32,000 nt of DNA from Brevibacillus brevis (lineage in GTDB: Bacteria > Bacillota > Bacilli > Brevibacillales > Brevibacillaceae): the NCBI RefSeq assembly GCF_031583145.1, contig NZ_CP134050.1, positions 685,739-717,738 on the forward strand. Reading direction: 5' to 3'. This document shows, one piece after another, positions 9,490 through 32,000 of this stretch. The translations under genes were made by a program, and so were the position numbers. The notes beneath the pieces were generated by a model. It searched no databases. It saw only the letters and a program-made list of their open reading frames with translations, and had not been told where the DNA came from. Each line of letters starts with the position of its first letter. The stretch's first letter is position 1.

Positions 9490-9499
9490 CGCAAAAAGG

Positions 9500-9698: not shown

Positions 9699-10490
9699 GT
9701 GATCCAATACTTGATCGAGATTCAGGAACTGACCAAAGCATTCGGGGGAAATATCGTTCTGGACAAGGTCACCTTCTCCATTCATAACCGGGAATTTCTC
9801 GTCATCCTGGGTTCCAGCGGGGCGGGGAAGTCGACGCTGCTGCGCTGCATCAACGGTTTGCTTGCGCCGACAAGCGGACAGATCCGAATGGACGGTACGG
9901 TCTATACACAAAAGAACATCCGGGAATTAAGGAGAAAAGTGGGCTTTATCTTCCAGCATTACGAGGTGATCGGCAACCTGTCCGTGATGCAGAACGTCCT
10001 GCTGGGCAGCCTGGGTACAAAATCCTTCTGGAATGTCTTTTTTTCCAGGGAGGAGCGCGTCAAGGCAGCGGAAGCCATCGAACTGGTCGGACTGGGGGAC
10101 AAGGTCCATGTACGGGTCGATCAGCTCAGCGGCGGACAAAAGCAAAGGGTCGGGATTGCCCGGGCCGTTTTTCAAAATCCGCAGGTGATTTTGGCCGATG
10201 AACCTGTTGCCAGTCTGGATCCGGTGACCAGTCTGGAAATCCTTTCGCTGCTCAAGCGAATCAAGGAGGAAAAAGGCACGACCATTGTCTGCAATCTTCA
10301 CCAGCTGGAGTATGCGCGCACTTTCGGGGAACGGATTATCGGGATTCGCCACGGAATGATTCAGTATGACGGGCAGGCATCCCGGATTACGGAAGCGGAT
10401 ATCCGGAACATTTACGGTAATGCTTACATGCTGGAACAGGGTGAGCGTGAAGAGGAAGGACGCACTGCTGCACAATTGGTTCATTCCTAA
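9699..10490 (+). CDS. phnC: Phosphonate/phosphite ABC transporter ATP-binding protein (PhnC/PtxA-like)
   Basis: Walker A GSSGAGKST, signature LSGGQKQRV and Walker B ILADEP. The N-terminal IEIQELTKAFGG is typical of PhnC. The start may be TTG 9711, with AAGGTGAGG upstream. Confidence 0.88.
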   Translation: MIQYLIEIQELTKAFGGNIVLDKVTFSIHNREFLVILGSSGAGKSTLLRCINGLLAPTSGQIRMDGTVYTQKNIRELRRKVGFIFQHYEVIGNLSVMQNVLLGSLGTKSFWNVFFSREERVKAAEAIELVGLGDKVHVRVDQLSGGQKQRVGIARAVFQNPQVILADEPVASLDPVTSLEILSLLKRIKEEKGTTIVCNLHQLEYARTFGERIIGIRHGMIQYDGQASRITEADIRNIYGNAYMLEQGEREEEGRTAAQLVHS

Positions 10491-10509
10491 ACAACGAGGA
10501 GGGCTTTTT

Positions 10510-11427: not shown

Positions 11428-12260
11428 TGAAACCGGAACAATCAGAAGCAGTCCACAAGAAAGCAGCTCTCTCGCCCGGAAACAGCTTCTGGGCGAACTG
11501 GGGCTGGGTGATCGGCACGGGAGCTGTCCTGATCGTCGGAGCGTTGGTCTATACCCTCGTGATCAGTTGGGAAGCGTTGATGGCAGGCGACATTCTGGAA
11601 AACATGTCCCGCATCATCGGCGAAATGTTTCCGCCCGATCTGTCGATTATCGCCACATTGGGCCAACCGATCATCGACACGTTGGCGATGAGTGTAATGG
11701 CTACCCTGCTTGCGGTTTGCATCGCCTTTCCGCTCGGCTTTCTCGCCGCGGAAACCACGACCATCCATCCGACAGTGCGGTATTTGGTCAAAGGGTTGTT
11801 CAATGCCTTGCGAACCATTCCTGAATTGATTTTGGCGATCATTTTTGTCGCTTCGGTTGGGTTTGGTATCCTGCCGGGAATTCTGGCCTTGGGCCTGCAT
11901 TCAGCGGGGATGCTTGGGAAATTTTACGCCGAAGCCATTGACAAGGTGGACAAGGGACTGATAGAAGCGGTGGAAGCATGCGGCGGATCCCGTTTTCACG
12001 TCATCGTGTTTGGCGTGATTCCGCAGATTATCAGCCATTGCGTCGATTTCTCCCTGTACCGTTGGGAGTACAACTTTCGGGCATCAACCGTTGTAGGGAT
12101 GATTGGAGCGGGTGGAATCGGCTTCCAACTGATGGCCTCCCTGCGGATCCTGCAGTATCAAGAGGTGTTGGCCATCCTGGTGGCCGTGTTTGTCATGGTT
12201 CAGCTTGTCGATGCGTTCGGAAACGCAATTCGAAACAAATTGATCGTGCGGGAGAGGTAA
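11427..12260 (+). CDS. phnE: Phosphonate/phosphite ABC transporter permease (PhnE/PtxC-like)
   Basis: The start overlaps the phnD stop. It is a multi-TM protein with the PhnE-like EAA region EAIDKVDKGLIEAVEACGGSRFHVIVFGVIPQ. Confidence 0.88.
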   Translation: MKPEQSEAVHKKAALSPGNSFWANWGWVIGTGAVLIVGALVYTLVISWEALMAGDILENMSRIIGEMFPPDLSIIATLGQPIIDTLAMSVMATLLAVCIAFPLGFLAAETTTIHPTVRYLVKGLFNALRTIPELILAIIFVASVGFGILPGILALGLHSAGMLGKFYAEAIDKVDKGLIEAVEACGGSRFHVIVFGVIPQIISHCVDFSLYRWEYNFRASTVVGMIGAGGIGFQLMASLRILQYQEVLAILVAVFVMVQLVDAFGNAIRNKLIVRER

Positions 12261-12262
12261 TC

Positions 12263-13273
12263 ATGAAGAAGCCAAAGGTGTTTATTTCGCATTGGATGCC
12301 GGCCATCGGCGTGGACATGATCCGGCAGCACTGCGAGGTTGACTACTACGACGGAACGGTTCCCCTGGACAAGAGGGAATTCATTGCCCGGGCAGCAGAC
12401 GCGGACGCCCTGCTGGTTTTCGTACCGGATGTGATCGACGCAGAGATTTTGGACCATTGCCCCAAGGTAAAAGTGATCAGCAGCTTTGGAAAAGGGTATG
12501 ACAACATCGATGTGGGAGCGTGTTCCAGGCGGGGCATCCTGGTTACCATCAATCCGGACGCCCTGACGGATTCCACGGCGGATTTGGCCATCGGTCTTCT
12601 GCTCGCCCTCTCGCGCAACATTTTGCCGGGAGACGCTCATGTCAGAAGAAAGGCTTTTGCCGGATGGCATGCCACCAACCTGCTGGGAAAGGATTTTCAC
12701 CATTCCACGTTGGGGATTATTGGCATGGGGGCCATCGGAGAAGCGATTGCCGCCAGAGCCAAAGGATTTCAGACGGAGATGTGGTACACCGATGTGCAGC
12801 GTTTTCCGGAAAAGGAAGAGAAATGGGGGATTCGCTATACCGACCTCCAAAGTTTGCTGGAACAATCGGATTTTGTCATCGTCGCCGTCAATCTGGTGCC
12901 GGAAACCTATCATCTGATCGGCGGGGATCAGCTGCAGCGGATGAAGCCGGGCAGCTGTCTGATCAATATCAGCAGGGGATCCACCGTGGATGAGGCGGCC
13001 GTCGCCCGATCCCTGCAGGCCGGGCATCTGGGAGGATACGCGTCCGATGTGTTTGCGTTTGAAGATCCTTCGAACCCCCATCGTCCGGGGTATATCGCCG
13101 AGGAATTGCTGTCCCGCCAGACGGACACCGTCTTTACGCCCCATATCGGCACAGGAACCTTGCAGGCACGGGACCGTTTGGCGGTTTCCAGCGCCAATCA
13201 GCTGCTGGCCGCACTGAAAGGCGACCGTCCAACAGGTGCCGTCAATTTCCAGCAAGTCAAAGAGTTGGCTTAA
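12263..13273 (+). CDS. ptxD: NAD-dependent phosphite dehydrogenase (PtxD-like D-2-hydroxyacid dehydrogenase)
   Basis: 336 aa, the same length as P. stutzeri PtxD as I recall it. Rossmann motif GIIGMGAIGEAIA. The catalytic-triad contexts are SRGSTVDE, GGYASDVFAFED and TPHIGTG, plus GW in FAGWHATNLLG. It lies directly downstream of phnCDE-type genes. The longer ORF-track start at 11978 lies inside phnE and is rejected. Confidence 0.8.
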   Translation: MKKPKVFISHWMPAIGVDMIRQHCEVDYYDGTVPLDKREFIARAADADALLVFVPDVIDAEILDHCPKVKVISSFGKGYDNIDVGACSRRGILVTINPDALTDSTADLAIGLLLALSRNILPGDAHVRRKAFAGWHATNLLGKDFHHSTLGIIGMGAIGEAIAARAKGFQTEMWYTDVQRFPEKEEKWGIRYTDLQSLLEQSDFVIVAVNLVPETYHLIGGDQLQRMKPGSCLINISRGSTVDEAAVARSLQAGHLGGYASDVFAFEDPSNPHRPGYIAEELLSRQTDTVFTPHIGTGTLQARDRLAVSSANQLLAALKGDRPTGAVNFQQVKELA

Positions 13274-13290
13274 GCAAGAAGGAAACGAAA

Positions 13291-13338
13291 AAGGAAAACC
13301 GGCTGCCGTTCTTGCGGCGATCGGTTTTCCTTTTTTAT
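13291..13338. terminator. Bidirectional rho-independent terminator between ptxD and the LysR gene
   Basis: AAGGAAAACCG ... CGGTTTTCCTT stem with T-runs on both strands. Confidence 0.75.
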
Positions 13339-13347
13339 CGAGACTTT

Positions 13348-14253
13348 TCAGGATGCAAAATACTTTCCGATATAGTGCAGGAACGTTTCCGTTTGGCTGG
13401 GTAGCACTTTGCTTTTGTCGCTGACCAGGTAAAAGGAGCGGTGAAAATGCATGCCTTTCATGGGAATGATCCGCAGCGTCCCCAGTTTCAATTCGCGTGT
13501 CAGGGCGAACCGGGACAGGATCGAGATCCCCATCCCTGTTTCCACGGCAGCCTTCACCGCCTCCGTATTTCCCAATTCCATCACGATGTGCAGTTTCTCG
13601 GGATCAAGATCCAGCCCTACCAGCGTTTCTTCAATGACCTGACGCGTCCCTGACCCCGGTTCCCGCAGAATTAGCGGGAGGGAAAACAGTTCGTATGGGG
13701 TGATGGATTCGCGGTTTTGAAGCAAGGGATGGGGCGATTCCCGTGAGCAAACCACCATCAGTTCGTCATCCAGAATGGGCTGGTAGGAAAGCTTGGGGTG
13801 GCGCAGCGAAGACTCGATGAATCCCAGCTGTATTTCGTGGTCCAGCAGCTGGTTGATGATCTGATGGGAATTGTTGATTTGCATACGGATCGTCACTTGG
13901 GGATAATCCCTCTTGAAGCGGCCCAGTACATAGGGGAGCACGTGCTCGCCAATCGTCGTGCTCGCGCCGATGTGGACCTCGCCGGTTAAAGCGCCGGACA
14001 AAAGGGATATTTCCTTTTCGGCGTTCTCCACCAGGTGAAAGATTCTCTCCGCGTAATGAAACAGGAGGTTTCCGGATTCCGTCAACCGGATCGACTTGGT
14101 GGTGCGCTCAAAAAGTTTCGTCTGCAGATGTTCCTCCAGACGCCGGATCTGGATGCTGACGGAGGATTGGGAAATGTGCAGGGACTTGGCCGTTTGCGAA
14201 AAATTCCGCTTCTTGGCCGCCACGTAAAATACCTTCAAGTGATCGAGATTCAT
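13348..14253 (-). CDS. LysR-family transcriptional regulator (PtxE-like by position)
   Basis: The N-terminal HTH is LKVFYVAAKKRNFSQTAKSLHISQSSVSIQIRRLEEHL, followed by a LysR substrate-binding domain. It is convergent with ptxD. Confidence 0.9.
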   Translation of the reverse strand: MNLDHLKVFYVAAKKRNFSQTAKSLHISQSSVSIQIRRLEEHLQTKLFERTTKSIRLTESGNLLFHYAERIFHLVENAEKEISLLSGALTGEVHIGASTTIGEHVLPYVLGRFKRDYPQVTIRMQINNSHQIINQLLDHEIQLGFIESSLRHPKLSYQPILDDELMVVCSRESPHPLLQNRESITPYELFSLPLILREPGSGTRQVIEETLVGLDLDPEKLHIVMELGNTEAVKAAVETGMGISILSRFALTRELKLGTLRIIPMKGMHFHRSFYLVSDKSKVLPSQTETFLHYIGKYFAS

Positions 14254-14369
14254 GGATCTTCTCCTGTTTGCCGAGGTTAGTTTTATCTTAAATCATTTTC
14301 CGCGACGGAGAAAGACAGCCAACCGGATTTACGCAAAAAGGCGGTTAGCGCAAGTGACCATCGACCGGG

Positions 14370-14497
14370 TCAAGTGATGCGGTATACCTTCAGCTTGCGG
14401 TGCAAGGTGCGTATGCCGATGCCCGGCTCCTTGGCGGCTTCCTGCTTGCCTTACGATCCGCACCGTGCTTCCTGCGTGCCGCCCGGATGGCAAGACG
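14370..14497 (-). pseudogene. C-terminal relic of an NtrC/sigma-54-type activator (Fis-type HTH)
   Basis: The minus strand reads AAKEPGIGIRTLHRKLKVYRIT-stop. One frameshift upstream it reads LAIRAARRKHGADRKA, which matches the usual xAIxxALxxxxGNxxxAAxxLGISRxTLYRKLKxY end of these activators. There is no upstream body. Confidence 0.5.
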
Positions 14498-19503: not shown

Positions 19504-19642
19504 CAGATATATAACTAAATAGGGCTTGCTGAACGAATGAAAAATTGAGTAACCACAAGGGTTTTGCCCCGTTTTCATCGAAGTCATGTGCAAGGAAATC
19601 GATGATTTTCCTGCAAATTCCTTGCACATGGAGCGGATATGG

Positions 19643-20044
19643 ATGTACGAATATATCTCTCATCGTGAAAACCAATTGCTTCTCCCCGATGATTTCTTCT
19701 TGCCGTTTGGCGGCAAGTTGAATAAAGAAAATCGCTGGGTCAAACTGGCTCAGTTGGTGCCGTGGGTATATGCGGAGAAAAAGTATGCCAAATCCTTTCG
19801 CAAATCATTTCGTGGACAAAAGGCCGTTTCTATCCGTGTCGCCCTTGGTGCCCTCATCATTCAGGAACGCTTGCAGTTGTCGGACCGGGAAACGGTCCAG
19901 CAGATTGTCGAAAACCCGTATCTGCAATATTTCATCGGGCTGGAAGGCTATCAGGATCATCCGCCGTTCCACCCGTCGCTCATGACGCATTTTCGCAAAC
20001 GTCTGGGCGAGCAAGTTCTCCGCGAAATCAACGAGATCATCGCG
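19643..20044 (+). pseudogene. IS1182/IS5-type transposase, N-terminal (DUF772-like) fragment cut by IS256
   Basis: Reads LLLPDDFFLPFGGKLNKENRWVKLAQLVPW...RVALGALIIQERLQLSDRETVQQIVENPYLQYFIGL...FHPSLMTHFRKRL. The reading frame is broken exactly at the IS256 left IR (20045). Confidence 0.7.
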
Positions 20045-21602
20045 GTTGAGTCCGTATAATTGTGTAAAAACAGAATCTCTCTGAAAAATAAGGGAGCCAT
20101 TTCAGTTCCCTCCGGATAGAATGTGGTTGACTAGATAACATTCGAAAGAGAGGGAATTTGAAATGGCTCAATACCAGATTACCGTAGATTCGCAACTTTT
20201 GCATCAGCTTTTTCTCGGCAATTCACAGGATTCGGGAGTGTCCAAGTTGTTGGAATCCGTATTGAACCAAGTCTTGCAGGCACAGGCGACCGAACAGTTG
20301 GGGGCGGAACCCTACGAACGGACAGATGAGCGTCAAGCATATCGAAATGGTACATACCCACATCAATTGACTACACGTGTCGGTACGATCACGCTTCGTG
20401 TCCCTCGCATTCGCGGCGGGAAGTTCTCCACCGAGTTGTTCGCCCGTTATCAACTCAGCGAACAGGCACTGGTGCTGGCTCTCATGGAGATGGTCGTCCA
20501 TGGTGTGTCTACCCGCAAGGTGGCCCAGATCACAGAAGAATTGTGCGGTACGGAGTTTTCCAAATCGACCGTGTCCGATCTTTGCAAACGGTTAGATCCC
20601 ATGGTGACCGCCTGGAATAACCGTCCGCTGCACGCTTCTTCGTTCCCCTTTGTCATCGTCGATGCCCTGTACCTGAAAGTACGCGAAGAAGGACGAGTGC
20701 GGTCACGCGGCACTCTCATCGGGATCGGTGTCAATGCCGACGGATACCGGGAGGTATTGGGCGTTATGCTCGGCGACAGCGAGTCGGAGGCCAGCTGGAG
20801 CGAATTTTTTGGCTGGCTGAAAAGCCGTGGGCTTAAAAAGGCGTCGATCTGATTGTGTCGGATGACCATGGAGGGTTGGTTCGAGCCATCCGCAGGAACT
20901 TCCAAGGGGTGACCTGGCAGCGATGCCAGACGCACTTCATGCGCAACATTCTTGACGCCACACCCAAATCCTTGCAGGACGAGATTCATAGCCGGATTCG
21001 CCCCATTCTGGAGGCACCGGATGCAAAGACGGCACGGATGCTGTTAGAGAAGGTACTGGAGGAGTATGAAACGAAAGCGCCGAAGGCCATGGCTGTCCTG
21101 GAAGCAGGCTTCGAAGATGTCACAGCCGTCTTGGCATTACCGGAAAAGTACCGCAAGCGTCTTCGCACCACCAATCCGATGGAGCGGTTGAATGAGGAAA
21201 TCCGCCGCCGTGAACGCGTGATTCGGATTTTTCCGAATCGAGAGTCTGCCATCCGCTTGATAGGGGCATTGCTCATGGAGATCGACGAGAAGTGGGCAAG
21301 TGGGAAGAAGTATCTGGATACGTCCGACTATCTTGCATGGCGCGAATCGCAAGCAGGATCTCCCGGTTCGAAAGTTACACGCATCGGTTGACCGACGTAG
21401 CCTGTCAAGGCCGCGAAGCGTTCCATTTAGCCTTGACAGGCTGAATGAAACACACTTTTGAAAAACCCAGCAAGAGATTGCTGGGGCTGCCATACGGCGA
21501 GTGACGGGGTGCAGGGGGCGAACTCCCTGCGTCTTCTCCTTCGGGGGACGGAAGGGGGCGTTCTAACCGAGGGAGAATTTACACACAAATATGGACTTGA
21601 TC
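20045..21602 (+). mobile_element. IS256-family insertion sequence, full length (copy 2)
   Basis: The left IR is GTTGAGTCCGTATAATTGTGTAAAAAC. The imperfect right IR is ...TTTACACACAAATATGGACTTGATC, ending at about 21602. There is no 8-bp duplication: the flanks are TCATCGCG and AAGGGATG. A 13-bp-stem hairpin lies at 21399-21442, after the transposase stop. Confidence 0.85.
20163..21391 (+). pseudogene. IS256-family (mutator-type) transposase split by a -1 frame change
   Basis: ORF A (20163-20852) ends ...WLKSRGLKKASI-stop. ORF B is in the -1 frame from 20840 and reads GVDLIVSDDHGGLVRAIRRNFQGVTWQRCQTHFMRN.... The two are contiguous in intact family members. The switch point is the A5G run at 20835-20840. 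Confidence 0.85.
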
Positions 21603-22292
21603 AAGGGATGCTAACCAAATCGCGAGTCGCATCAAGCACGCCAAATTCCCTTACATGAAAACGCTCGATCAATTTGAATTCTCGGCGATTCCGTCCCTCA
21701 ATAAGCCCAAATTGCTTCAACTGGCTCGTTGTGAGTACATCGAAAAGGCAGAGAACATCATGTTTATCGGAAACTCTGGCACTGGCAAAACTCATCTCTC
21801 CATTGCACTCGGGAAGGAAGCTTGCCATCATGGCTATTCCGTCCAGTTTTGGACTGCCGCTAAAATATGCAATGAGCTTATGGAAGCTCAGTCCCAAAAG
21901 CGAATTCTCCAGCTAGAGAGGCAATGGTTGAAAACAGATTTGATTATTTTGGATGAAGTCGGGTTTGTCCCTCTCAGTCGGACCGGGGCGGAGTTATTAT
22001 TCCAATTTTGTGCGGCCCGCTATGAGAAAGGAAGCATGATCATTACCAGTAATCTGGAATTTACGGAATGGACACAGATTTTCAAAGATGAGCAAATGAC
22101 GTCAGCCCTGGTTGATCGGCTTACCCATCGTGCCCACATCTTTGCAATGAATGGGGACAGTTATCGCTTTAAACAGAGCATTCAAAGATCGTGATCATGA
22201 AAAAGTTACCCACCCGACGGGTGGATTGATTTTTGCCATGGTGGTCAATTTTTTGATGAGCACTGTGGTCAACATTTTGGTTGACATTCACA
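21603..22292 (+). mobile_element. istB: IS21-family element, 3' part only: 5'-truncated istB (to 22194) plus the right terminal repeats
   Basis: The frame is open from the IS256 end and reads RDANQIASRIKHAKFPYMKTLDQFEF...GNSGTGKTH (Walker A)...LIILDEVG...LVDRLTHRAHIFAMNGDSYRFKQ. The terminal repeats TGGTCAA / TGGTCAA / GGTTGACA end in ...CATTCACA at 22292. Confidence 0.8.
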
Positions 22293-22840
22293 CCGTTGCA
22301 AAGGATCGGCTGACATTGATTCGCCCGGCTCTCGAGGCGTTACGATCCGGCAAGAAAAAACAAATTCAGAATTTCGCCGACATTTATTCCAGTGTGTCCA
22401 TTGACGATTATTTGGATCGGATTGAAGCTGAACAGCGGCAAGCGGAACGATTGGAATTGATTCGGAATGAACTTGGTTACGACGTTGTGGAACAAACCGT
22501 GAATGAAGTCTGCGCATGGCTTGTTGAGGCGGGGATTGATCAACTGTCAGCGAAGCAATCGGCCGAGAAGGTTGTAAAGGCGTTTTTGAACGAACTTGAT
22601 AGTGTAGACCTACATAAGGAGGCCTTAAAGCTGGCTTTACAAACTCCGACTGTGCCATCAAGTTCTTCGCCTAAGCAACGCGGAAGAAGCAGTTCAAGAG
22701 TGATTCCGACCGAGCCTGACGATTTGAGAGTAATCGTATCACAAGGGAAAAAGAAGAAGTTGTCAGCTTACGAGGCGCTGAAGGCAGCCGGATATATTAA
22801 AAATCCTTTGGAGTTCCTTAATGAGGCATTGAACCCATGA
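22293..22840 (+). pseudogene. tnsC: Probable tnsC 3' fragment (last ~182 codons) of a Tn7-like transposon
   Basis: The frame continues from the IS21 end with no start codon of its own (TVAKDRLTLIRPALEALRSGKKKQIQNFADI...). It has an ATGA stop/start overlap with tnsD, and its position matches Tn7 gene order. The family assignment rests on synteny plus my weak recollection of TnsC C-termini. Confidence 0.5.
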
Positions 22841-24606
22841 ATGAACGGTTTCCAATTCCAATTCCGTATCCAGATGAGCTCTTATACGGCGTGATCAGTC
22901 GGTATCACTTAAGGGCTAATAACACAAGTCCAAAATGCACGTTTAAAGAAGTGTATGGCACGAAGAATGTCATCCCGACAATTGACCTGCCAAGTCATAT
23001 CGAGGCATTTTCGCGTAGAAGTATGTGGCATGAAATGACAGCCGATGATTGGATCAAAGACCACACTTTTTATCCGTATTATTCTCCCTTCTTGCCAAAG
23101 GATCGTGCCAATCGTTTAAAGCAACTCATGAAAGGGCCGGATGGTTCGGGGATACATGCACTTGTTGGGATTACCGCCAGTACAGTGGATAGGAGCGGTG
23201 ATTTACGGTTCTGTTCACAATGCTATAAAGAAGATATCCATCAATTTGGGGAACCGTATTGGCACCGCATTCACCAGTTGCCGGGAGTATGGGTTTGTCC
23301 GGTTCATCGGGATGTTCTGCATCGGATGACATACCCGGTTTCAGATCGATATGGGTTGACCGTTCTCCCTATTTCGAAGAAGATGTTCGGCTCAGTACCG
23401 ATTGTCGCCAACTTGTCAGGTAAAACAATCAATCAGCTTTCAGACATCGCAAGAGACATTCAGGCATTAATGCAAACCAACGATTTGCCAGTTCTTTATG
23501 AATCCAGGAACATATTTCTACCACGCTTACGGAAGCAAGGGTATGTAACCGCAGGCGGGCGTATTCGCCAGCAAAAACTTGAGGAACAGTTCGTCATTTG
23601 CTATGGGAGAGAGCTGCTGGAGATGCTGGGCAGCCTTCCATACGGTAAGGACTACACATGGCTGAATCTGGCGACAAGGTCCGCCCGGCGGGCGATTCAT
23701 CCGCTGCGGCAGATGCTGCTGATCCGTTTTTTATACGGGTCATTCAATGGATTTTTAGAACAATCCGAGGTGGATGACGCACCCTTCGGTAAAGGGCCAT
23801 GGCCATGTCTGAACAAAGCAGCGGAACATTATCGAACCTCAATAATAACGGACCTGCGCATTACGCGTTGTACAGATACCGGCCGGCCTGTAGGAACCTT
23901 TACTTGTGAATGCGGCTTCGCCTATTCAAGACGAGGACCGGATCAATCCGAAGAAGATAAATACCGCAGAGGGCGTATCAAATCGTTTGGTCCTGTTTGG
24001 ATGGATAAGCTTCAGGTACATTTGCGAGAGGGCATTTCCTATCGTTCCATGGCAGCGTTATTGGGGGTTGATACGAATACAGTCATGAAGTACGCCAAAG
24101 GTACGGTGACAACACGCAACTTGGAACCTGCATTATTAGAGAGTCCAAGAAAATCTTTCAAACCTGTCCGATCCAAGGGATCTAAACATACACGAGTCGA
24201 CTGGGGGAAACGTGATCTGGAGCTAAGTTGGATTGTCGAGGAAGCATGTAGAAGGATGTTATCCGATCGCAAAAATAAACCTGTCAGAATTACGATTTCA
24301 GCGATAGGCAAACGAATCGGGAAACTGAGTTTGCTAGAAAAGCAAAAACAAAAGCTCCCTGTAACGATGGCAGTCTTGTCCGGCTACCTTGAGTCTACAT
24401 CTCAATTTCAAATTAGAAGAGTTCGATGGGCTGCTGAACAAATGGCTGGCGAATGGCCCATAAAACGGTGGAAACTTGTGAAAAAAGCCGGACTGCGACC
24501 AGGATATGCCCAAGAGGTATCTGATGAAATCGATCGTTGTATTGGACAAGGGGCTGCAATAAACCGAATTGCATCTGCTGAGGTGACACCATTATGGCTG
24601 CATTGA
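22837..24606 (+). CDS. tnsD: Tn7-like target-selection protein TnsD (TniQ family)
   Basis: The TniQ N-terminus is FPIPIPYPDELLYGVISRYHLR. The CCCH zinc finger is LRFCSQCYKEDIHQFGEPYWHRIHQLPGVWVCPVH. A second Cys cluster is WPCLN...CTDTGRPVGTFTCECGF. The ORF is 589 aa. Confidence 0.88.
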   Translation: MNERFPIPIPYPDELLYGVISRYHLRANNTSPKCTFKEVYGTKNVIPTIDLPSHIEAFSRRSMWHEMTADDWIKDHTFYPYYSPFLPKDRANRLKQLMKGPDGSGIHALVGITASTVDRSGDLRFCSQCYKEDIHQFGEPYWHRIHQLPGVWVCPVHRDVLHRMTYPVSDRYGLTVLPISKKMFGSVPIVANLSGKTINQLSDIARDIQALMQTNDLPVLYESRNIFLPRLRKQGYVTAGGRIRQQKLEEQFVICYGRELLEMLGSLPYGKDYTWLNLATRSARRAIHPLRQMLLIRFLYGSFNGFLEQSEVDDAPFGKGPWPCLNKAAEHYRTSIITDLRITRCTDTGRPVGTFTCECGFAYSRRGPDQSEEDKYRRGRIKSFGPVWMDKLQVHLREGISYRSMAALLGVDTNTVMKYAKGTVTTRNLEPALLESPRKSFKPVRSKGSKHTRVDWGKRDLELSWIVEEACRRMLSDRKNKPVRITISAIGKRIGKLSLLEKQKQKLPVTMAVLSGYLESTSQFQIRRVRWAAEQMAGEWPIKRWKLVKKAGLRPGYAQEVSDEIDRCIGQGAAINRIASAEVTPLWLH

Positions 24607-26207
24607 CATTGCGTTCATGGCCGTTTCCGGATAATCAGGGGGTTGAGTTATTTTGGTTCGGGTCCCCTTTCATGGACTACAAAGGGAATTGGAGAGTTCG
24701 AGTCGCATTTCGGACGGAAACCGGGGACTTGAAAGTTGTATCCTACCCATGGGGAACAGTACCTTATTTGCGCATGGGACAAGTCTACACCAACGGAGTA
24801 TTTGATCAAATCAAGCCATTGGAAGGCATTGTACATAGAATAACGATAAGCAGCTTGGATCAAGGTTTGATGAGCAATGGGTTTAAATTGCCCAAGCGTT
24901 TGATTGACTTCCGTCAAAATCCGGAGCTTGGGCTTCAGAAAATTATTCAGTTTCAGTTTGACGGGATGATTTATTGCTTTCCAGTGTTCGAATTCATTCG
25001 AGCCATGTTTATTAACTCCAGGTATTTGGCGTATTATTTAATGCAGCCGCACGGTCTGGAAATGTTGATCGATAACAGCGATATGAGAGGAACAACTCTG
25101 TATTTTGATTTGAGTTTTCGTGTACCGGCCAAATTGGCAAGCGAAAGTAACGCACGTCACCTATCCTGGATTTACATCGATCCCGCTATTCGTACCATGT
25201 GGGATTCCGTTTATCAATTGATGTTTAATCAAGCGATCAAGGACTCGCCTCAGAATCCGAGCGCCAGAATGAAGAAGGGAATTCCGCTTGGCGTTGAGCT
25301 CCCGGCTGTTGGTCCTCTTGAGTTTCACGTTCGAGGAGAACAATTCAATAACTACTTCTTGGTGAAAGAAATTCTCGGCATTGGCGGTTTTAAGCATCCG
25401 GCGGAAGAAATCGTCTTTTGGCACCCATCGAAGAAACGCCGTGAGTCGATTTCAGGAGATAAACAAGTTCGAGTTACGTCCGGATCTGAAAATAAAGACT
25501 ACATATTGAATGATCAAAGCGAAAATGCCAGGGAAAACACGCGGCAAGATGTATTGGAGGCCCCTCCTACGTTTATGCGTTTCTCCAATTATCCGAGAGT
25601 TACTACTCGTCGAGAGGATGTGAGGCATTCCCATACCGGCAACGACGTGATCATCACCTCCGGGAGAGGCGGGAAGAACTCAGGAGGATTAGAGGAAGTA
25701 AGCACACAGGATTCAATGGTCGGCGGTGATACGCCTCCTATCGATTTTCAGACGCTTGAAACTATACCAATTACAGAGGCTATCGGTCTTGAATCTTTTT
25801 TCGAAATGACTCAAATCTTGAAGCATGTCTTTCCCGGTCATATCCGGATGTCTGTGCTCAGGATTCCTCCCGGCAAAAGATTTTCTGTATGTCCAAACGG
25901 TTCCCGACGAACATGTGCGATCGTACAGGCGGATCATGGTATCACGACTAAGTTTATTGTCGAAGTGGCCCGGCCGGATGATTGGTCCATTTCGACATTG
26001 ATCCTCCACCCAACCCCGCAGATTTCACTAAAGACAGTTGAGCGTGATATTAAGTTACTCCTTGAAGGGCTTGTTCAAAAAGGCGGTCACTGGGATCAGA
26101 ACATTTTAAACCAATGCAACGGCTTCAATATCGAAAAGGTTAAACATTATCAGAGTGACTCAGTTAGGGATTGGGCGTATCGGATAAACGGGAAATTATC
26201 CGGCTAG
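24594..26207 (+). CDS. tnsE: Tn7-like TnsE homologue
   Basis: 537 aa, against about 538 aa for Tn7 TnsE. It overlaps the tnsD stop. From my memory of Tn7 TnsE, three blocks align. IYCFPVFEFIRAMFINSRYL aligns with YHIPQLELARSLFLINSYF. LEFHVRGEQFNNYFLVKEILGI aligns with WKLHVKGRSSNEDKDYLVEEIVGL. IPPGKRFSVCPNGSRR aligns with LPKVGRSRLHLCKDGSPR. Confidence 0.75.
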   Translation: MAALTLRSWPFPDNQGVELFWFGSPFMDYKGNWRVRVAFRTETGDLKVVSYPWGTVPYLRMGQVYTNGVFDQIKPLEGIVHRITISSLDQGLMSNGFKLPKRLIDFRQNPELGLQKIIQFQFDGMIYCFPVFEFIRAMFINSRYLAYYLMQPHGLEMLIDNSDMRGTTLYFDLSFRVPAKLASESNARHLSWIYIDPAIRTMWDSVYQLMFNQAIKDSPQNPSARMKKGIPLGVELPAVGPLEFHVRGEQFNNYFLVKEILGIGGFKHPAEEIVFWHPSKKRRESISGDKQVRVTSGSENKDYILNDQSENARENTRQDVLEAPPTFMRFSNYPRVTTRREDVRHSHTGNDVIITSGRGGKNSGGLEEVSTQDSMVGGDTPPIDFQTLETIPITEAIGLESFFEMTQILKHVFPGHIRMSVLRIPPGKRFSVCPNGSRRTCAIVQADHGITTKFIVEVARPDDWSISTLILHPTPQISLKTVERDIKLLLEGLVQKGGHWDQNILNQCNGFNIEKVKHYQSDSVRDWAYRINGKLSG

Positions 26208-26234
26208 ACAATAGATGTTTGATTTATTTTGGTA

Positions 26235-26264
26235 TTGAAATACTTGATTCTTGGATGGTATAAT
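26235..26264 (+). promoter_or_regulatory. Sigma-A-type promoter for the R-M operon
   Basis: TTGAAA (26235-26240), an 18-nt spacer, then TGgTATAAT (extended -10, hexamer 26259-26264). It lies in the AT-rich gap after tnsE. Confidence 0.6.
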
Positions 26265-26275: not shown

Positions 26276-27886
26276 TTGGCAGTGAAAGAAGGTGATGAAT
26301 TGATTGAATCGTTCTGGAATACTTGTTTGCTTCATGATATCACAACCCGTGATCAGCTGCTGCGCGAAGCCATTCGAGTGAAGCGGACACAACAACTACT
26401 GAAACTACAACAGTTGGCCGAAACGGAGCTAATTACGGAACCCGAGAAGCTGTTTCTGTGGATGAAGGAACGCGCTTTAGACAGGGAATTAGGCCATTTC
26501 CCCGGCGATCGGGATTTATTTTATAAATTATACCATGCAGGCAAGGACATGGACTTGTTGGAATACGCCATGCTCACCATCCAACAAGATCGGGTTACAG
26601 GGAGCATTGTCGTCCATCCTGGAATCGTCGAAAAGTTTGTCGATCAGTGTGAGCGGCGTGGTTGCAAGAACATTCTGCTTGCAGAAGCTGAAAAGTATAT
26701 CAAAGGACTTGTCGAGACGAAATGTTACCATCGCCCATGGACAATCACATTGTTAACGGAAAACTACATCGTAGGCAGGTTGTTCAAAACGTATTTCGAG
26801 TCCTACTCCAATATCCGCATCGTTCAAGGGTCCATTTATCAGCCGCTACCTGCAGAAATTCAATTCGACGCGATCCTGGCGATGCCGAATTTCGGTATGA
26901 AAATGAACGATGACGAGGTTGCGGTTCGGGAATCCGAGGGCGCGGCGGCCAGCTATCTGCTTCCACTCTTGCAAGATGGCGGGAGATTAAGCGTGACCTT
27001 GCCCGCGCGGATGCTGTTTCAATCCGGCGCGATCGCCAGCTGGCGGAAGCAAATGAATGATCAGGCGCCGGTGCAAACGATCTATTCGCTTCCGGACGGC
27101 TTGTTTCGTCCCTACACTTCCATCAAGACCTATCAGGTTGACTTTGGAAAAGCGCCTGTGGAAGAGGTGATCCTCGGGCGGCTCCATATGGAGAAGTCAA
27201 AGCTTGTGGCGGAACGGGAGATTGCCATCCATCCAGACCGGTTCCGAGAGCTGGATCATTGGCGAATCGAACTGCTGCTGGATGAAGATCAGGATACACT
27301 TCGTTCGTTCCAGCAGGCGGCGACCCCGAAAGTGAAGTTGCGCGATGTGGCAGAAATTTTTCGGGGAAAATCGATTCTTAAGCAGGATCTAAAGCCCGGG
27401 AACATTAAGGTGCTGAATATATCCAATCTGGATGACGGCGAAGTGCTATTGGATCAACTTGAAACGATTGACGAGGAAGAGAGGAAAGTGAAACGTTACG
27501 AGATTCTCCCGGGTGACCTGGTCATGACGTGTCGCGGCACCGTGAACAAGCTGGCTGTATTTCCGGAGGCTCAAGGGATGGTCATCGCCTCCTCGAATAT
27601 GATCGTGATCCGATTCAAGTCGGCCATCAAGAGCCATTTTGCCAAAATATTTCTGGAAAGCCCGGTCGGGACAGCTCTTATTCAAAGCTTCCAGCGGGGA
27701 ACAACCGTGATGAATTTGAATCCAGCGGATGTGGCGGAATTGGAATTGCCTTTGGTACCGGAAGATATACAGCAAGAATTAATACAGCAATATATCCGGG
27801 AGAAAGAACGATATAAAGAGGTCGTTCGGGAAGCGGCTAACCGTTGGGAACAAGTGAAGAACCAGTTATATGAGCAACTCTACTGA
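26276..27886 (+). CDS. HsdM-like (gamma-class N6-MTase fold) + single HsdS-type TRD fusion with degenerate catalytic and SAM-binding motifs
   Basis: Co-linear with N6_Mtase proteins but with substituted motifs. IVVHP replaces (F/Y)[12 protein letters not shown] (26672-26698) replaces ILDPxCGx[12 protein letters not shown] (MPNF at 26882-26893) replaces FDxILxNPPF. The downstream [14 protein letters not shown] and IYSLPDGLF blocks are retained. The C-terminal half (about 27326-27760) is a typical type I TRD: [13 protein letters not shown]...[19 protein letters not shown]...SSNMIVIR...[19 protein letters not shown], followed by a heptad-like helix. The start is uncertain (TTG 26276, or TTG 26300 with GAAGGTGA upstream). 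Confidence 0.7.
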
Positions 27887-27902
27887 GGAGGAATTCAGGA
27901 TC

Positions 27903-29426
27903 ATGGCAACAGCGAACATTGGATTCGAGGAAAAATTATGGAGCATGGCCGATAAGCTGCGTGGCAGCATGGATGCAGCGGAGTATAAGCATGTAGCTCT
28001 CGGCCTGCTTTTTCTGAAATATGTGTCTGATGCATTTGAAGAAAAATACGAAGCTTTGAAAAATGAGCCATATGCTGATCCGGAAGACCGGGACGAATAT
28101 GTTGCTGCAAACATTTTCTGGGTACCGAAGGAAGCGCGCTGGAGCTATATCAAGGATAACGCGAAAAAGCCGGAAATCGGGCAGCTCATTGATAATGCGA
28201 TGATTGCCATCGAGAAGGAAAATCCAACGCTGAAAGGTGTGCTGCCGAAAGATTACGCCCGCCCGGCGCTCGATAAAACCCGTCTTGGCGAAGTGATCGA
28301 CCTATTCTCGTTCAAAGTGGGCGATGAAGAAAGCCGTTCGAAGGATGTACTGGGGCGGGTATATGAGTATTTCCTTAGCAAATTCGCAAGCGCGGAAGGC
28401 AAGAACGGCGGGGAATTCTATACCCCGAACAGCGTTGTTCGCCTGCTCGTCGAGATGATACAGCCGTTCAAGGGCCGCGTATACGACCCCTGCTGTGGTT
28501 CCGGCGGCATGTTCGTTCAGAGCGAGAAGTTTGTAGAGGAGCATCAGGGGCGCATTGGCGATATCGCGGTGTACGGGCAGGAGTCGAATCCGACGACGTG
28601 GAAGTTGTGCAAAATGAACCTCGCCATTCGCGGCATCGACGGCAACCTTGGGGAGCATCATGCAGATACGTTCCATAATGATTTACATAAAAATCTGAAG
28701 GCCGATTACATCTTGGCGAATCCGCCATTCAATATCAGCGATTGGGGCGGCGAGCGGCTGACAGAGGATGCCCGCTGGACATATGGAGTGCCTCCCGCTG
28801 GGAACGCTAACTACGCCTGGATTCAGCACATTGTGAACAAGCTTGCGCCCAGCGGTGTTGCAGGTTTCGTACTGGCGAATGGTTCCATGTCGACGAGCAC
28901 GACGGCGGAGTTTGAGATTCGCAGCAAGCTGGTTAACGCCGATCTGGTCGATTGCATCGTCACCTTGCCGGGGCAGTTGTTTTACTCCACACAGATTCCG
29001 GTATGTCTCTGGTTCATTGCTAAAAATAAAGCGCCAAAGGGCCTTCGGGACCGCCGCGGTGAAATCCTGTTTATTGATGCCCGCAAAATGGGCCATATGG
29101 TGGATCGCACACATCGCGAACTCAGTACGGAGGATATCCGGAAGATCGCCGATACATACCACGCATGGCGCGGTCAGGCGGAAGCTGGACAGTATGAGGA
29201 TGTGAAGGGCTTCTGCAAAGCAGTGAAACTTGCGGAAGTGCAGGAGCACGAGTATATTTTGACGCCGGGGCGTTATGTCGGGATTGAAGATGTGGAGGAA
29301 GACAGCGAACCGTTCGAGGATAAAATGGCACGGCTGACTTCGGAGCTAGCGGAACAGTTCGCCAAGTCCCGGCAACTGGAAGACGAAATTCGCAAGCGGC
29401 TTGGGGGGATTGGGTTTGAGTTTTGA
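27903..29426 (+). CDS. hsdM: Type I restriction-modification methyltransferase subunit HsdM
   Basis: The N-terminus [46 protein letters not shown] is the HsdM_N domain. Motif I is [12 protein letters not shown]. Motif IV is ILANPPFN (NPPF at 28719-28730). A GAGGAGG RBS overlaps the upstream stop. The alternative ATG at 27870 lies inside the previous gene. Confidence 0.92.
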
Positions 29427-30669
29427 AACTGGATGGAGAAAGTGTACTTGGGGAGATATTTCTACACTTGAATATGGGAAAGCCCTTAGGGATTATAAAG
29501 ATAAAACAAGTGGATATCCGGTTTATGGTACTAATGGTTTAATAGGATATACTGAAAAATATCTTTCAGATAAGCCAGGGGTAATAATTGGGCGAAAAGG
29601 TGCATACCGAGGAGTTCACTATTCCAATAGACCTTTTTTTGTTATCGATACCGCCTATTACTTATCACCCAAAATTCCCCAACTAAATTTAAGATGGGCA
29701 TACTATAGTTTGCGTAATATAGATATTAATAGCATGGATTCAGGCTCTGCAATTCCTTCCACGAGTAGAAGTGATTTTTACTCAATTGAAGTTGATCTAC
29801 CAGATATTTATGAACAACAAGAGATAGCAAATTTGCTCTCAGTATTAGACGATAAAATCGAACTCAACAACGCAATCAACAAAAACCTTGAAGAAATGGC
29901 CCAAGCCCTTTTTAATAGCTGGTTTGTGGACTTCGAGTTTCCAAATGAAAACGGAGAACCGTATAAATCCAGTGGCGGCGAGTTTGAGGAAAGTGAATTG
30001 GGGCTCATTCCGAAGGGGTGGAAGCAGGGGACAATTAGTGAACTTGGTGAGGTTGCCGGAGGAGCAACGCCTTCTAAGAAAAACGAAGACTTTTATACCG
30101 TTAGAGGCATTCCTTGGATCACTCCTAAAGATCTATCGAAAACTAACAACAAATATATCTCGCGCGGCGAAATAGATATTACACAGAAAGGGTTTAGCAA
30201 CTCCAGTGTAAAGCTTTTACCGAAAGGGACAGTTTTATTTAGTTCGCGAGCTCCTATTGGTTATATTGCAATAGCTAAAAATGAAGTTACAACAAATCAG
30301 GGATTTAAGTCCGTTATTCCATTCAAACATGTTGGTTCAGAATTCGTCTATTATCTCTTGAAGAGTAATGTTGAGACGATTGAATGTCGTGCATCGGGCT
30401 CAACCTTTAAGGAGATATCCGGGACAGAAATGAAGCGAGTGCCTGTTCTTATCCCTACAGAAAATGTCCTTGCGAAGTTTAATGAGATCGTTGAACCGAT
30501 AGGGAGATTAACACAAAAGTGTGAAGAAGAAAATGAAGATTTAACCCAAATCCGCGACACCCTTCTCCCCAAACTGATGTCGGGCGAGATCCGTGTCCCT
30601 GTGGAGCAGGATCATAATCATCCCGATCTGCCAAAGGTTGCGGAGAGCAGCGCAATCTATCAGCCCTAA
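29401..30669 (+). CDS. hsdS: Type I R-M specificity subunit HsdS (two TRDs)
   Basis: TRD1 and TRD2 are separated by the central conserved region [44 protein letters not shown]. The distal conserved region is [19 protein letters not shown]. The gene overlaps the hsdM 3' end. The start could be TTG 29401, 29410 or 29416. Confidence 0.9.
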
Positions 30670-30686
30670 TCCAAAGGAGGTGCAAC

Positions 30687-32000
30687 ATGGCCTACTATAC
30701 GACGTCCTATACCGAAAGCGACCTGGAGCAGGCCGCACTGGAGTGGTTCGAAGAACTGAACTACGAGAAAGCATACGGCCCGGATATTTCTCCGGAAGGC
30801 GAGTATCCCGAACGACAGTTTTACCATGACGTCATCCTGAAAGATCGGCTGCGCGAGGCTCTCATTCGCATCAACAAACATGTGCCGCGCGAAGCGATTG
30901 AGGAAGCGATCCGGATCGTTGAAGTGCCGCGCAGTCCCAGTTTGCTGATCAACAACCGGGCGTTCCAGAAGATGATCACTGACGGAATCGACGTGCAGTA
31001 TCAAGCCGCCAATGGCGAATATCCGACAGAGAAAATATGGCTGTTCGACACCGATCCGGACGGGATCGACAACAACGACTTTCTGGTCGTCAACCAGTTT
31101 ACCATCGTTGAAAATCAGGGAGAGAAGCGCCCGGATATCGTCGTGTTCGTAAATGGATTGCCGATCGCCGTATTTGAATTGAAAAGCGCCTCCAACGAAG
31201 AAGTCGGGATCAGCGATGCCTATAATCAAGTGCAGACGTACAAAGGCGCGATACCGTCCCTGTTCACCTACAACTCGTTCCTGGTCATCAGTGACGGTGT
31301 GAATGCGCGGGTTGGCACGCTGACCGCCAATGAAGACCGCTTTATGATGTGGCGCACGATCGACGGCGATGACGTGGCGCCCTCCTCCCTGCCCCAGCTT
31401 GAAGTGCTTGTAAAAGGAATGTTCGAGAAAAGCCGACTGCTTGATATTATCAAGCATTTCGTGCTGTTTCAGACCGATGGGGAGCATCTGTTCAAAATAT
31501 TGGCGGGATACCACCAATACCACGCCACCAACAAGGCGATTGCAAGTACGGAAAGAGCGACGATGGATGATGGGGACCGCAAAATCGGCGTCATCTGGCA
31601 TACGCAAGGCTCCGGTAAAAGCTTGTCCATGGTTTTCTACGCGGGAAAACTTGTTCTGACGCTGAACAACCCGACGATCGTCGTGGTGACGGACCGGAAC
31701 GATCTGGACGATCAGTTGTTCAGCACGTTCAGCAAGTCGAAGGACTTGCTCAGGCAAACGCCTCAGCAAGCGGAAAATCGGACTCATTTGCGACAACTTT
31801 TGTCGGTGGAGTCGGGCGGGATCATTTTCACAACGGTTCACAAGTTCACCCCCGATGAAAATGAAGACAAATATCCTGTACTTACGGAACGCCGCAATGT
31901 GATTGTGATTGCGGACGAGGCGCATCGCAGCCAGTACGGGTTTCAGGCGGATATGGTCGCCGGGGACGACGAAGCGGCCATTAAGTATGGCTATGCCAAA
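30687..32000 (+). CDS. hsdR: Type I restriction endonuclease subunit HsdR, N-terminal part (continues beyond right edge)
   Basis: AAAGGAGG RBS with ATG at 30687. The frame is open to 32000 and is not in the ORF track because there is no stop. The N-terminal nuclease-region block is RPDIVVFVNGLPIAVFELK. Helicase motif I is WHTQGSGKSLSM and motif II is VIADEAHRSQYG. Confidence 0.9.
   Translation, partial: MAYYTTSYTESDLEQAALEWFEELNYEKAYGPDISPEGEYPERQFYHDVILKDRLREALIRINKHVPREAIEEAIRIVEVPRSPSLLINNRAFQKMITDGIDVQYQAANGEYPTEKIWLFDTDPDGIDNNDFLVVNQFTIVENQGEKRPDIVVFVNGLPIAVFELKSASNEEVGISDAYNQVQTYKGAIPSLFTYNSFLVISDGVNARVGTLTANEDRFMMWRTIDGDDVAPSSLPQLEVLVKGMFEKSRLLDIIKHFVLFQTDGEHLFKILAGYHQYHATNKAIASTERATMDDGDRKIGVIWHTQGSGKSLSMVFYAGKLVLTLNNPTIVVVTDRNDLDDQLFSTFSKSKDLLRQTPQQAENRTHLRQLLSVESGGIIFTTVHKFTPDENEDKYPVLTERRNVIVIADEAHRSQYGFQADMVAGDDEAAIKYGYAK

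Follow-up and report, generated by a model that had tools for sequence, protein, structure and literature searches.

A Motif-Degenerate Methyltransferase/Target Recognition Domain Fusion as Predicted Autorepressor of Type I Restriction-Modification Operons

Introduction

Why a type I restriction-modification (R-M) operon should begin with a gene that resembles a methyltransferase deprived of its catalytic motifs is the question raised by a 32,000-nucleotide (nt) stretch of Brevibacillus brevis DNA (contig NZ_CP134050.1, positions 685,739 to 717,738; hereafter the window). Here, the open reading frame (ORF) at 26276..27886 (+), which is named gene X in this work and whose residue numbers follow the 536-amino-acid (aa) frame, precedes hsdM, hsdS and hsdR. 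An earlier note, made from the letters of the window, had described X as an intact, apparently dead fusion of an HsdM-like part with a target recognition domain (TRD) heading a type I R-M operon and had listed three conceivable roles for it. Among these, that of a sequence-specific DNA-binding regulator is favoured by the analysis reported here, as a conserved palindrome lies over the promoter of X and palindrome and protein were found to be tied to each other in both directions. X is thus suggested, with a probability of about 0.72, to be a homodimeric pseudo-methylase/TRD autorepressor of the X-hsdM-hsdS-hsdR operon, i.e., a non-catalytic methylase-plus-specificity paralogue that would have turned into the transcriptional controller of its own operon. 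For the transcriptional control of type I R-M systems in general, "surprisingly little information" was stated to be available (2025 review PMC12707154).

Architecture and Loss of the Catalytic Motifs

The AlphaFold2 (AF2) model of X (56 homologues, pLDDT 88.7) comprises a helical N-terminus, a Rossmann-like alpha/beta domain, a TRD and, at its C-terminus, a helix of 40 residues. The N-terminal helical domain (aa 9-104, 26300..26587 (+)), delimited by the model and the family alignment, holds an invariant motif formed by F75, P76, G77, D78 and F82. It is followed by a catalytically dead gamma-class methyltransferase (MTase)-like domain (aa 105-335, 26588..27280 (+)), recognised by Pfam and by alignments, and by a single, strongly conserved TRD (aa 350-495, 27323..27760 (+)), which Pfam, homology and Foldseek assign to the type found in Esub1, a Streptococcus pyogenes paralogue considered below. 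Within the TRD, the family alignment defines an FRGKS loop (27359-27373 (+)) and the alignment with Esub1 an 'insertion helix' ERKVKRY (27479-27499 (+)), which carries R403-x-V405-x-R407. The long C-terminal helix of the AF2 model (aa 496-536, 27761..27883 (+)) matches both the conserved-region helix of HsdS and the dimerisation helix of Esub1.

The fold assignment of the earlier note, i.e., HsdM-like plus TRD, was confirmed by the model, Foldseek and Pfam. Pfam N6_Mtase matches X partially (aa 188-286, profile positions 116-226 of 311, E 5.5e-7), Methylase_S matches aa 352-501 (E 3.4e-11), and PADLOC Specificity_I profiles match with E-values down to 1e-19. Using the whole chain, Foldseek retrieved type I HsdM (7eew), CamA, BpuSI, M.BseCI and M.TaqI, as well as 5ybb and 2okc. 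Together with the collinearity of motifs X and IV in hhalign, the partial Pfam match and the Foldseek results identify a gamma-class MTase fold, and the TRD fold is documented by Pfam, PADLOC, AF2 and Foldseek alike. Unlike HsdS with its two TRDs and two helices, X possesses one TRD and one helix (Pfam, AF2). PADLOC and NCBIfam gave generic S-subunit, MTase and MADS5 matches far under their cut-offs and no named defence system, and neither a helix-turn-helix (HTH) nor an RptR fold was found in X by Pfam, NCBIfam or Foldseek.

The sites of the canonical methylase motifs were located by alignment with the adjacent HsdM. GSIVVHP (26600-26620 (+)) pairs with GEFYTP in hhalign, and AMPNFG (26879-26896 (+)) pairs with NPPF in both BLASTP and hhalign, so that two of the substitutions read from the sequence earlier (IVVHP for YTP and AMPNFG for NPPF) stand. 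The third, ILLAEAEKY for the glycine loop that binds S-adenosylmethionine (SAM), does not hold residue by residue, as the HsdM loop YDPCCGSGG lies opposite an 8-residue gap of X in the profile alignment and AEAEKY aligns with the helix after the loop. Because the loop falls into this gap, the SAM loop of X is deleted and not substituted position by position, with ILLAEAEKY (26672-26698 (+)) standing in its place. Across the family, L-I-[AT]-E-A-E-K-[YF] occupies the motif I position, all 111 aligned sequences having E139 and K140, and [IVLM]-P-[NHAST]-F-G-x-K occupies that of motif IV, with P204 invariant and the aromatic residue F206 retained. In approximately 150 X-family sequences, D, N or S never occupies the catalytic position of motif IV, where I, V, L or M is found instead, and profile alignment, Pfam and family alignments revealed neither a glycine loop nor a (D/N/S)PP(Y/F/W) motif elsewhere in any X member. 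A catalytic motif hidden elsewhere in X was considered and rejected, since the alignments place motif IV at AMPNFG. The degenerate motifs are kept, without reversion to the catalytic form, even in members that are 24-30% identical. X is therefore most likely non-catalytic and is predicted neither to bind SAM nor to transfer methyl groups; given the retained F206 and P204, a base-flipping or stacking pocket devoid of chemistry is conceivable.

Conservation of the X Family

A search of 5.8 billion proteins identified 379 relatives of X, mostly 525-545 aa in length and down to 39% identity, in Paenibacillus, Brevibacillus, Cohnella, Alicyclobacillus, Thermoactinomycetaceae, Clostridia and Negativicutes and in one metagenome-assembled genome labelled Parabacteroides. 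When the N-terminal 332 residues of X were used in an exhaustive HMMER search, about 70 additional clusters were recovered (~520-560 aa, to 24-26% identity), all of which share the dead motif pattern, while ordinary methylases match weakly, over motifs IV-VIII. FRGKS, ERKVxxY and CRGT persist in members that are just 24-30% identical in their N-terminal part. For the comparison of loci (each designated by L and a number), genes were labelled by phmmer in look-ups of Brevibacillus composti, Sporomusa carbonis and Gottfriedia acidiceleris and in 80 loci coming from a one-genome-per-species scan. X is intact in 85 of 85 sources, and Nei-Gojobori dN/dS, calculated for 109 pairs, amounts to 0.11 over the entire gene, compared with 0.15 in the dead methylase domain and 0.056 in the TRD. 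BLASTP gave no significant similarity of X to the adjacent HsdM (E 0.34) or HsdS (E 0.21). Judged from these sequences, X is an old paralogue under purifying selection.

These findings bear directly on the idea that X might be a decaying hsdM/hsdS duplicate or else an active methylase with unconventional motifs, an idea which could draw on the weak Pfam N6_Mtase and Methylase_S matches. The low dN/dS, the intactness in all sources and the dissimilarity to the neighbouring genes led to the rejection of the decaying duplicate, and the absent glycine loop, together with the replacement of the catalytic N/D/S by I/V/L/M throughout the family, argues against activity; practically no credence is hence given to either version. 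The preference of the earlier note for a retained pseudo-enzyme over a decaying duplicate is borne out by intactness, selection and the conservation of the degenerate motifs.

A second outcome of the locus comparison concerns specificity. Mean pairwise identity among 51 complete loci is 0.79 for HsdM, 0.75 for HsdR and 0.31 for the hypervariable HsdS. Within X, the TRD is the best-conserved part (0.67) and the dead methylase domain reaches 0.44. The TRD of X thus behaves in the opposite way to the variable TRDs of HsdS, both by identity (0.67 vs 0.31) and by dN/dS, and an invariant TRD argues for one fixed ligand and not for an alternative specificity module.

The Palindromic Operator

X lies directly behind a sigma-70-type promoter at 26235..26264 (+), which consists of the -35 box TTGAAA (26235-26240), an 18-nt spacer and the extended -10 element TGgTATAAT (-10 at 26259-26264). 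With 11 of 12 consensus positions plus the TG it is the sole strong promoter between 25900 and 31000, as had been claimed before. The family-wide upstream alignment revealed a palindromic predicted operator, TTTGGTAT-TGAA-ATACTTGA, at 26228..26247 (+); its core TGGTA-TTGAAA-TACTT (26230-26245) has a 6-nt spacer that is identical to the -35 hexamer. When upstream regions were aligned on a conserved residue, 63 dereplicated regions with unrelated flanks yielded the near-perfect palindrome TTTAGTAT-TGAC-ATACTAAA (TAGTA-N6-TACTA). This family palindrome, TTTAGTA-TTGACA-TACTAAA, lies over the -35 box, with the spacer being N7 in Negativicutes. In most dereplicated loci the spacer is a -35-like TTGNNA (TTGACA, TTGAAA, TTGCAA), and a TATAAT-like -10 element follows ~17 nt downstream, as read by eye.

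The site is strongly confined to the promoter of X. Taken over 84 loci, the 20 kb immediately 5' of X hold 46 exact TAGTA-N6/7-TACTA sites, compared with two across the rest of the sequence (1.51 Mb), and a site with up to two mismatches precedes X in 78 of these loci. As for the others, the upstream sequence is absent from the record of L004; in L001 a canonical site with one mismatch, and in L026-28 the symmetric variant TGATA-N6-TATCA, lies at the promoter of genes inserted upstream of X; and L071 carries the symmetric variant TGGTA-N6-TACCA. Among the 63 sites, 30 match at 16 of 16 arm positions and 18 at 15 of 16. The information content is 1.67 bits per arm position, a value inflated by best-match anchoring, vs 0.25-0.35 bits in the flanks. 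The three X proteins associated with the TGATA type show clade-specific changes in a TRD loop (S366A, L368S, D371E), and this covariation of TRD loop and operator is suggestive.

The reverse association was addressed by searching the exact operator 20-mer in 241 million metagenomic records. It was found on 112 contigs, 91 of which have at least 400 nt downstream; in 85 of these 91, an X homologue that is 27-42% identical to the window protein follows immediately 3' in the same orientation. A further four or five contigs encode divergent N-termini that resemble X, and one is a real exception. With an X or X-like gene downstream in about 90 of 91 contigs, the operator almost never occurs without X. 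A looser operator pattern was also matched on viral contigs, where most matches have no X homologue downstream and four have one; the X-less matches probably reflect chance.

Since binding of X to the palindrome is a prediction, it might be argued that the palindrome serves another factor of the host or the element, or is mere promoter architecture, the function of X being unrelated to it; the spacer, indeed, is accounted for by the -35 box alone. However, the arms are conserved in addition to the spacer, conservation extends across many classes of Bacillota and several mobile contexts, the site almost never occurs without X, it recurs with the paralogous Esub1, where it lies over the -10 element, and no other gene is common to all loci. 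Either reading is accordingly seen as very improbable.

Relation to Esub1

A search of Protein Data Bank sequences with the X-family profile retrieved Esub1 of S. pyogenes (8VSQ/8VSR) with E 1.4e-44 over X aa 338-531, while the best genuine HsdS gave 4e-11. Foldseek superposes X and Esub1 with template modelling (TM) scores of 0.86-0.88 at 28-30% identity, and ERKVKRY of X aligns with RRQLLRY of Esub1, R403 and K404 being invariant in the X family. X thus shares the half-S organisation of Esub1, i.e., TRD, helix and insertion helix RxΦxR (Φ, hydrophobic), and departs from the stand-alone format of ~200 aa by ~340 extra N-terminal residues and by its place at the head of hsdMSR. Crystal structure and size-exclusion chromatography (SEC) with multi-angle light scattering revealed Esub1 to be a homodimer formed via the C-terminal helices, which presents two identical TRD-like heads; the prophage protein paratox binds its insertion helix on the putative DNA-binding face, convincing HsdM binding was not observed in SEC, and a possible function as transcription factor was proposed by its authors at a time when target and function were unknown (PMC11754733).

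Esub1-like proteins (~198 aa) are conserved across Streptococcus in a context of ABC transporter and DUF2130 genes with no R-M genes nearby. In six of seven Streptococcus esub1 loci, TAGTA/TGGTA/TTGTA-N6-TACTA/TACAA lies 20-40 nt before the start codon and seems to overlap a -10-like hexamer, as read by eye. The sites are TAGTATCTAAATACTA, i.e., TAGTA-TCTAAA-TACTA, in S. pyogenes (L229 4961-4976), TAGTA-TTATAA-TACTA in a Streptococcus sp. assembled from a sequencing run (L230 4966-4981), TAGTA-TTTTAA-TACTA in S. iniae (L233 1461-1476), TGGTA-TTATAA-TACTA in S. equinus (L232 1466-1481), TGGTA-TTACAA-TACTA in an uncultured Streptococcus sp. (L234 1468-1483) and the symmetric TTGTA-TTAGAA-TACAA in S. 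pluranimalium (L235 ~1455-1475); in S. tangpeifui (L231) the palindrome is not evident before esub1. X and Esub1 have TRD and helix alone in common and both carry the palindrome in their own promoters; of all findings, this one speaks most strongly for a reading of TAGTA-N6-TACTA by the TRD. The association of operator and protein, which holds in both directions, is hence found in two paralogous families.

Besides, sequences that resemble the operator with one mismatch and have TTGAAA as their spacer occur at the same positions in three Streptococcus loci (L230 5447/6485, L232 1947/3000, L234 1947/2966), namely TAGTATTGAAATACCA inside esub1 and TGGTATTGAAATACTA inside the DUF2130 gene. They may be secondary sites or may result by chance from the encoded protein sequence (…IEI… motif). 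A 166-aa ORF upstream of esub1 in L230 was considered as a possible remnant of the dead domain and rejected, as it has no similarity to X.

Esub1 is also informative with regard to the possibility that X is an extra specificity or assembly subunit, which would recruit HsdM or HsdR to a fixed sequence and so confer a second, constant specificity beside HsdS. X shares an operon with hsdMSR in nearly all loci, its architecture is that of M plus half-S, and the operon of L002 has X and hsdM and no hsdS, all of which would suit such a subunit. Its presumed target, however, is conserved solely at the promoter of X itself, a restriction complex without matching methylation would cut host DNA, Esub1-type proteins with the same operator lack nearby R-M genes, Esub1 gave no clear HsdM binding in SEC (PMC11754733), and X-like genes also come first in operons whose type I layouts are unrelated. 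An extra subunit is therefore regarded as unlikely, and the alternative specificity module of the earlier note, which amounts to a related proposal, is disfavoured by the conserved TRD and by the stand-alone paralogue that has the same operator and no R-M genes.

Model for Operon Control

The suggested model of autorepression assumes that two X molecules pair via their C-terminal helices, by analogy with Esub1, whereby the dimer would expose a pair of identical TRDs, invariant in the family, at a distance of about one helical turn. These would contact the half-sites of TAGTA-N6-TACTA, whose centres are ~9-11 bp apart, in the window at 26230-26245. Bound to its operator, X would cover the -35 box and occlude RNA polymerase, resulting in negative autoregulation of X-hsdM-hsdS-hsdR. 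When the Tn7-like cargo that carries the operon enters a cell free of X, a burst of expression would be expected, followed by a low level that is independent of copy number. The dead methylase and N-terminal domains may have been kept as a DNA clamp, as is HsdM in the M2S1 complex, or as a sensor domain, given that Esub1 manages without that half.

Several points weigh against autorepression by X. DNA binding is a prediction for X and putative for Esub1 (PMC11754733). The window site departs from the consensus TAGTA-N6-TACTA by two outer mismatches. The covariation of S366A, L368S and D371E with TGATA represents a single evolutionary event. In L044, L053, L061, L062, L069 and L236 the palindrome lies just 5' of a separate -35 box, and the mode or sign of regulation may differ in these lineages. 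In EcoR124I/II, helix length is tied to the length of the target spacer; no indel matching the N7 spacers was found in the C-terminal helix of X. Esub1 does without a methylase-like half, and an autorepressor does not explain why X retains it. Finally, promoter and gene are co-inherited, so that their association in part reflects shared ancestry; selection on the site is nevertheless argued from the fact that the flanks diverged while the arms were kept.

A more far-reaching version of the repressor model combines repressor and guard-type sensor, in that phage anti-restriction proteins would strip X from its operator and hsdMSR would be derepressed under attack. Here, X would keep the whole shape of the M2S1 clamp, i.e., dead methylase lobes and TRDs, and the displacing factors would be Ocr/ArdA-type DNA mimics or proteins resembling paratox that act on the insertion helix of the TRD. 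The pseudo-enzyme half would then act as the sensor in a transcription factor assembled from modules of the very enzyme under its control, some loci would also derepress extra defence genes, and Esub1 would be a minimal chromosomal form of the switch, targeted by the prophage protein paratox. This version is tentative and rather doubtful.

From this a role has to be distinguished in which X mainly is a decoy or guard, i.e., a dead mimic of the M2S1 clamp that is bound by phage anti-restriction proteins, with the palindrome being its readout or unrelated. Such a role would accord with the fact that paratox contacts Esub1 at the insertion helix, on its putative DNA-binding face (PMC11754733), with the retention of this helix (R403-x-V405-x-R407) in X and with a full M-like shape kept under selection. 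No phage partner of X is known, however, and a decoy role alone does not explain the operator; besides, it would extend the repressor model, with which it is compatible, and not replace it. As the principal function of X it is deemed improbable.

Comparison with Known Systems

Literature was searched for a role of a dead HsdM/TRD fusion, and in the papers that this search covered none was described beyond Esub1, RptR and the reviews; the statement of the earlier note that no role was known consequently holds for the fusion itself, while a relative (Esub1) and analogues (RptR, C proteins) do exist. Esub1 (SpyM3_0890, 8VSQ/8VSR, PMC11754733) resembles X in its one conserved TRD, dimerisation helix, RxΦxR helix and the palindrome before its gene. 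In contrast to X, it comprises ~198 aa, lacks N-terminal and methylase-like domains, resides in a conserved chromosomal context without R-M genes and has its operator over the -10 instead of the -35 element.

Being first in the operon behind the promoter and having a co-conserved palindrome that overlaps this promoter, X exhibits two hallmarks of an R-M autoregulator and is an analogue of C proteins and RptR that belongs to neither family. RptR was reported as a 9-kDa, four-helix, homodimeric first-gene autorepressor of E. coli type I systems, for which derepression by a phage factor was proposed (PMC12255303), as in the sensor version of the model. Like X, it is encoded by the first gene of a type I operon or island and is conserved in many genomes along with its palindromic site; unlike X, it has an unrelated fold, a 6-bp TAGCTA repeated over the -10 element and an occurrence in Gammaproteobacteria. 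The C proteins of type II R-M systems likewise are dedicated autoregulators at the operon head with palindromic operators over their own promoter, but are small HTH proteins which usually activate and then repress and which are unrelated to M or S subunits. A homologue of C proteins encoded upstream of the Mycoplasma gallisepticum hsd operon represses that operon (review PMC12707154). In the MTase-repressor fusions SsoII, Ecl18kI and EcoRII (review PMC12707154), a methylase polypeptide represses its own R-M genes, which is reminiscent of X; these are, however, active 5-methylcytosine methylases whose added HTH-type N-terminal domain binds the operator, whereas in X catalysis is lost and the TRD itself would read the operator.

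With respect to the enzymes, M2S1 and the half-S protein EcoR124I-NT share with X the same folds in the order M domain, TRD and conserved-region helix, and the half-S homodimer reads a palindrome with half-sites about one helical turn apart (PMC3320862). The symmetric type I site given there for EcoR124I-NT, GAA-N7-TTC, has a half-site spacing like that of the X operator. X differs from these enzymes in that SAM loop and catalytic motif are missing, M and half-S form one chain and the TRD is invariant instead of hypervariable. CamA, M.BseCI, M.TaqI and the methylase/TRD part of BpuSI have the two-lobed methylase plus TRD in common with X (Foldseek E 1e-14 to 1e-18, TM ~0.5), but are active, with NPPY/F and SAM pocket, and possess no long C-terminal dimerisation helix.

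An autoregulator of an R-M operon is thus of a known kind, and new is its build from a pseudo-methylase/TRD with the TRD as DNA-binding domain of a transcription factor. If the model holds true, X would be a third and widespread solution for type I control after the Mycoplasma HTH C-homologue and the 9-kDa RptR, occurring in many orders of Bacillota, within Tn7-like cargo and on contigs with a viral classification. A regulator would then have arisen from the methylase and specificity modules of the enzyme itself once catalysis had been lost, a type I TRD would serve as DNA-binding domain of a transcription factor, and X would represent a clear bacterial case of a pseudo-enzyme turned regulator. 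For Esub1, the model further predicts binding to the TAGTA-N6-TACTA site of its own promoter and displacement from this site by phage paratox. In databases, X relatives are named 'restriction endonuclease subunit S' or 'N-6 DNA methylase', labels which mislead R-M and methylome predictions.

Operon and Genomic Context

In the window, X is followed by hsdM (27903..29426 (+), start ATG 27903), which has the canonical DPCCGSGG and NPPF, by hsdS (29401..30669 (+)), which encodes two TRDs (Pfam) and is hypervariable between loci, and by hsdR (30687..32000 (+)), whose N-terminal 437 aa are covered and which runs past the window end; a 419-aa ORF on the minus strand (30666-31925) is the shadow of hsdR. 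The Shine-Dalgarno (SD) sequence of hsdM (GAGGAGG, 27886-27892) overlaps the TGA stop of X, in line with what had been noted earlier.

The X frame is free of stops over 26276..27886 (+); in this respect the initial description as a 536-aa ORF was right, and in respect of length it probably was not. The true start is probably TTG 26300, yielding 528 aa, with 536 aa applying if TTG 26276 is used. TTG 26300 is favoured because an SD sequence, AAGGTGAT, lies 3-7 nt 5' of it and because 528 aa is the length of many homologues, while no SD sequence precedes TTG 26276 (window 26276-26302). The SD region GAAGGTGAT at 26288..26296 (+) would serve TTG 26300, and its arrangement recurs in L001 and L016. 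On this basis, and with ORF, Pfam, homologues and AF2 model considered, gene X was delimited as 26300..27886 (+).

The gene order is well conserved. The next labelled gene on the same strand after X is hsdM in 80 of 85 sources, and the order X-hsdM-hsdS-hsdR is found in 59 of the 68 sources that have at least 6 kb downstream, so that X precedes hsdMSR in nearly all loci, a point which the earlier note had proposed to check. As an exception, L048 has an IS110 inserted right after X. In most of the remaining incomplete loci the sequence stops shortly after X; L002, L012, L059 and L064 have enough room downstream and yet a truncated hsdM or no hsdS/hsdR. In L002 (Sporomusa carbonis, 11621-14487), the genes downstream of X encode a HIRAN-domain protein, HsdM and a member of the RhuM family, and hsdS and hsdR were not detected within 10 kb. 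An intact X stands beside a short hsdM match (~200-270 aa) in L012, L059, L064, L033, L042 and L078 and beside a fragmented hsdM or hsdR in L040, L043, L051 and L058, for which assembly errors, operon decay with the regulator kept, or contig ends (L033, L042) are possible reasons. A regulator retained alone could be the origin of orphan Esub1-like genes.

Additional genes are found in some of the operons. In L001 (5460-12150) and L026-L028 (~5400-11600), coming from Brevibacillus, Cohnella and Paenibacillus, operator and promoter are followed by two genes and then by X and hsdMSR. The inserted genes encode a sigma-70-like protein (PADLOC MzaA-like, 378 aa) and a ~1090-aa DpdF/alt-Cas3-like helicase, and their position behind the operator/promoter suggests that extra defence-type genes are under the same control; in L001, a 169-aa gene with no family match lies between X and hsdM. 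Apart from sigma-like/helicase-X-hsdMSR, operator and X also head the layouts X-hsdR-…-two hsdM and X-213aa-778aa-HNH-hsdM. Divergent X genes with operator in other layouts were observed in L213, L220 and L223 (contigs classed as viral), L236 (5900-13617) and L237, and the HNH-containing layout adjoins phage-like replication genes (DNA polymerase A, PD-(D/E)XK). As judged by these arrangements, the operator-X pair behaves as a portable promoter-regulator cassette.

Operator, X and hsdMSR are cargo adjoining tnsD-tnsE of a Tn7-like element, as identified by family matches to tnsD (22837-24606 (+)) and a tnsE-like gene (24594-26207 (+)), and the tnsD-tnsE-X junction is present in the window and 16 other loci. 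Among the window ORFs examined, tnsA, tnsB and tnsC were not identified, by which the element looks degraded. Upstream of tnsD and tnsE, the window holds mobile-element debris (19586-22840), consisting of fragments of a DUF772 transposase (19586-20059) and of IstB (IS21; 21655-22194), a Mutator-family transposase that a frameshift has divided in two (20163-20852 and 20855-21391) and a 229-aa ORF with no family match. In L015, a 23-nt repeat, TGGTAGTAACGGCTCTACTATTA, occurs 5' of X in two copies that are 121 nt apart (9048-9064 and 9169-9185), and a copy of TGGTAGTAACGGCTCTACTATTA with one mismatch lies downstream of glmS in L001 (5174-5190); these repeats may be ends of a Tn7-like element or TnsB-binding repeats.

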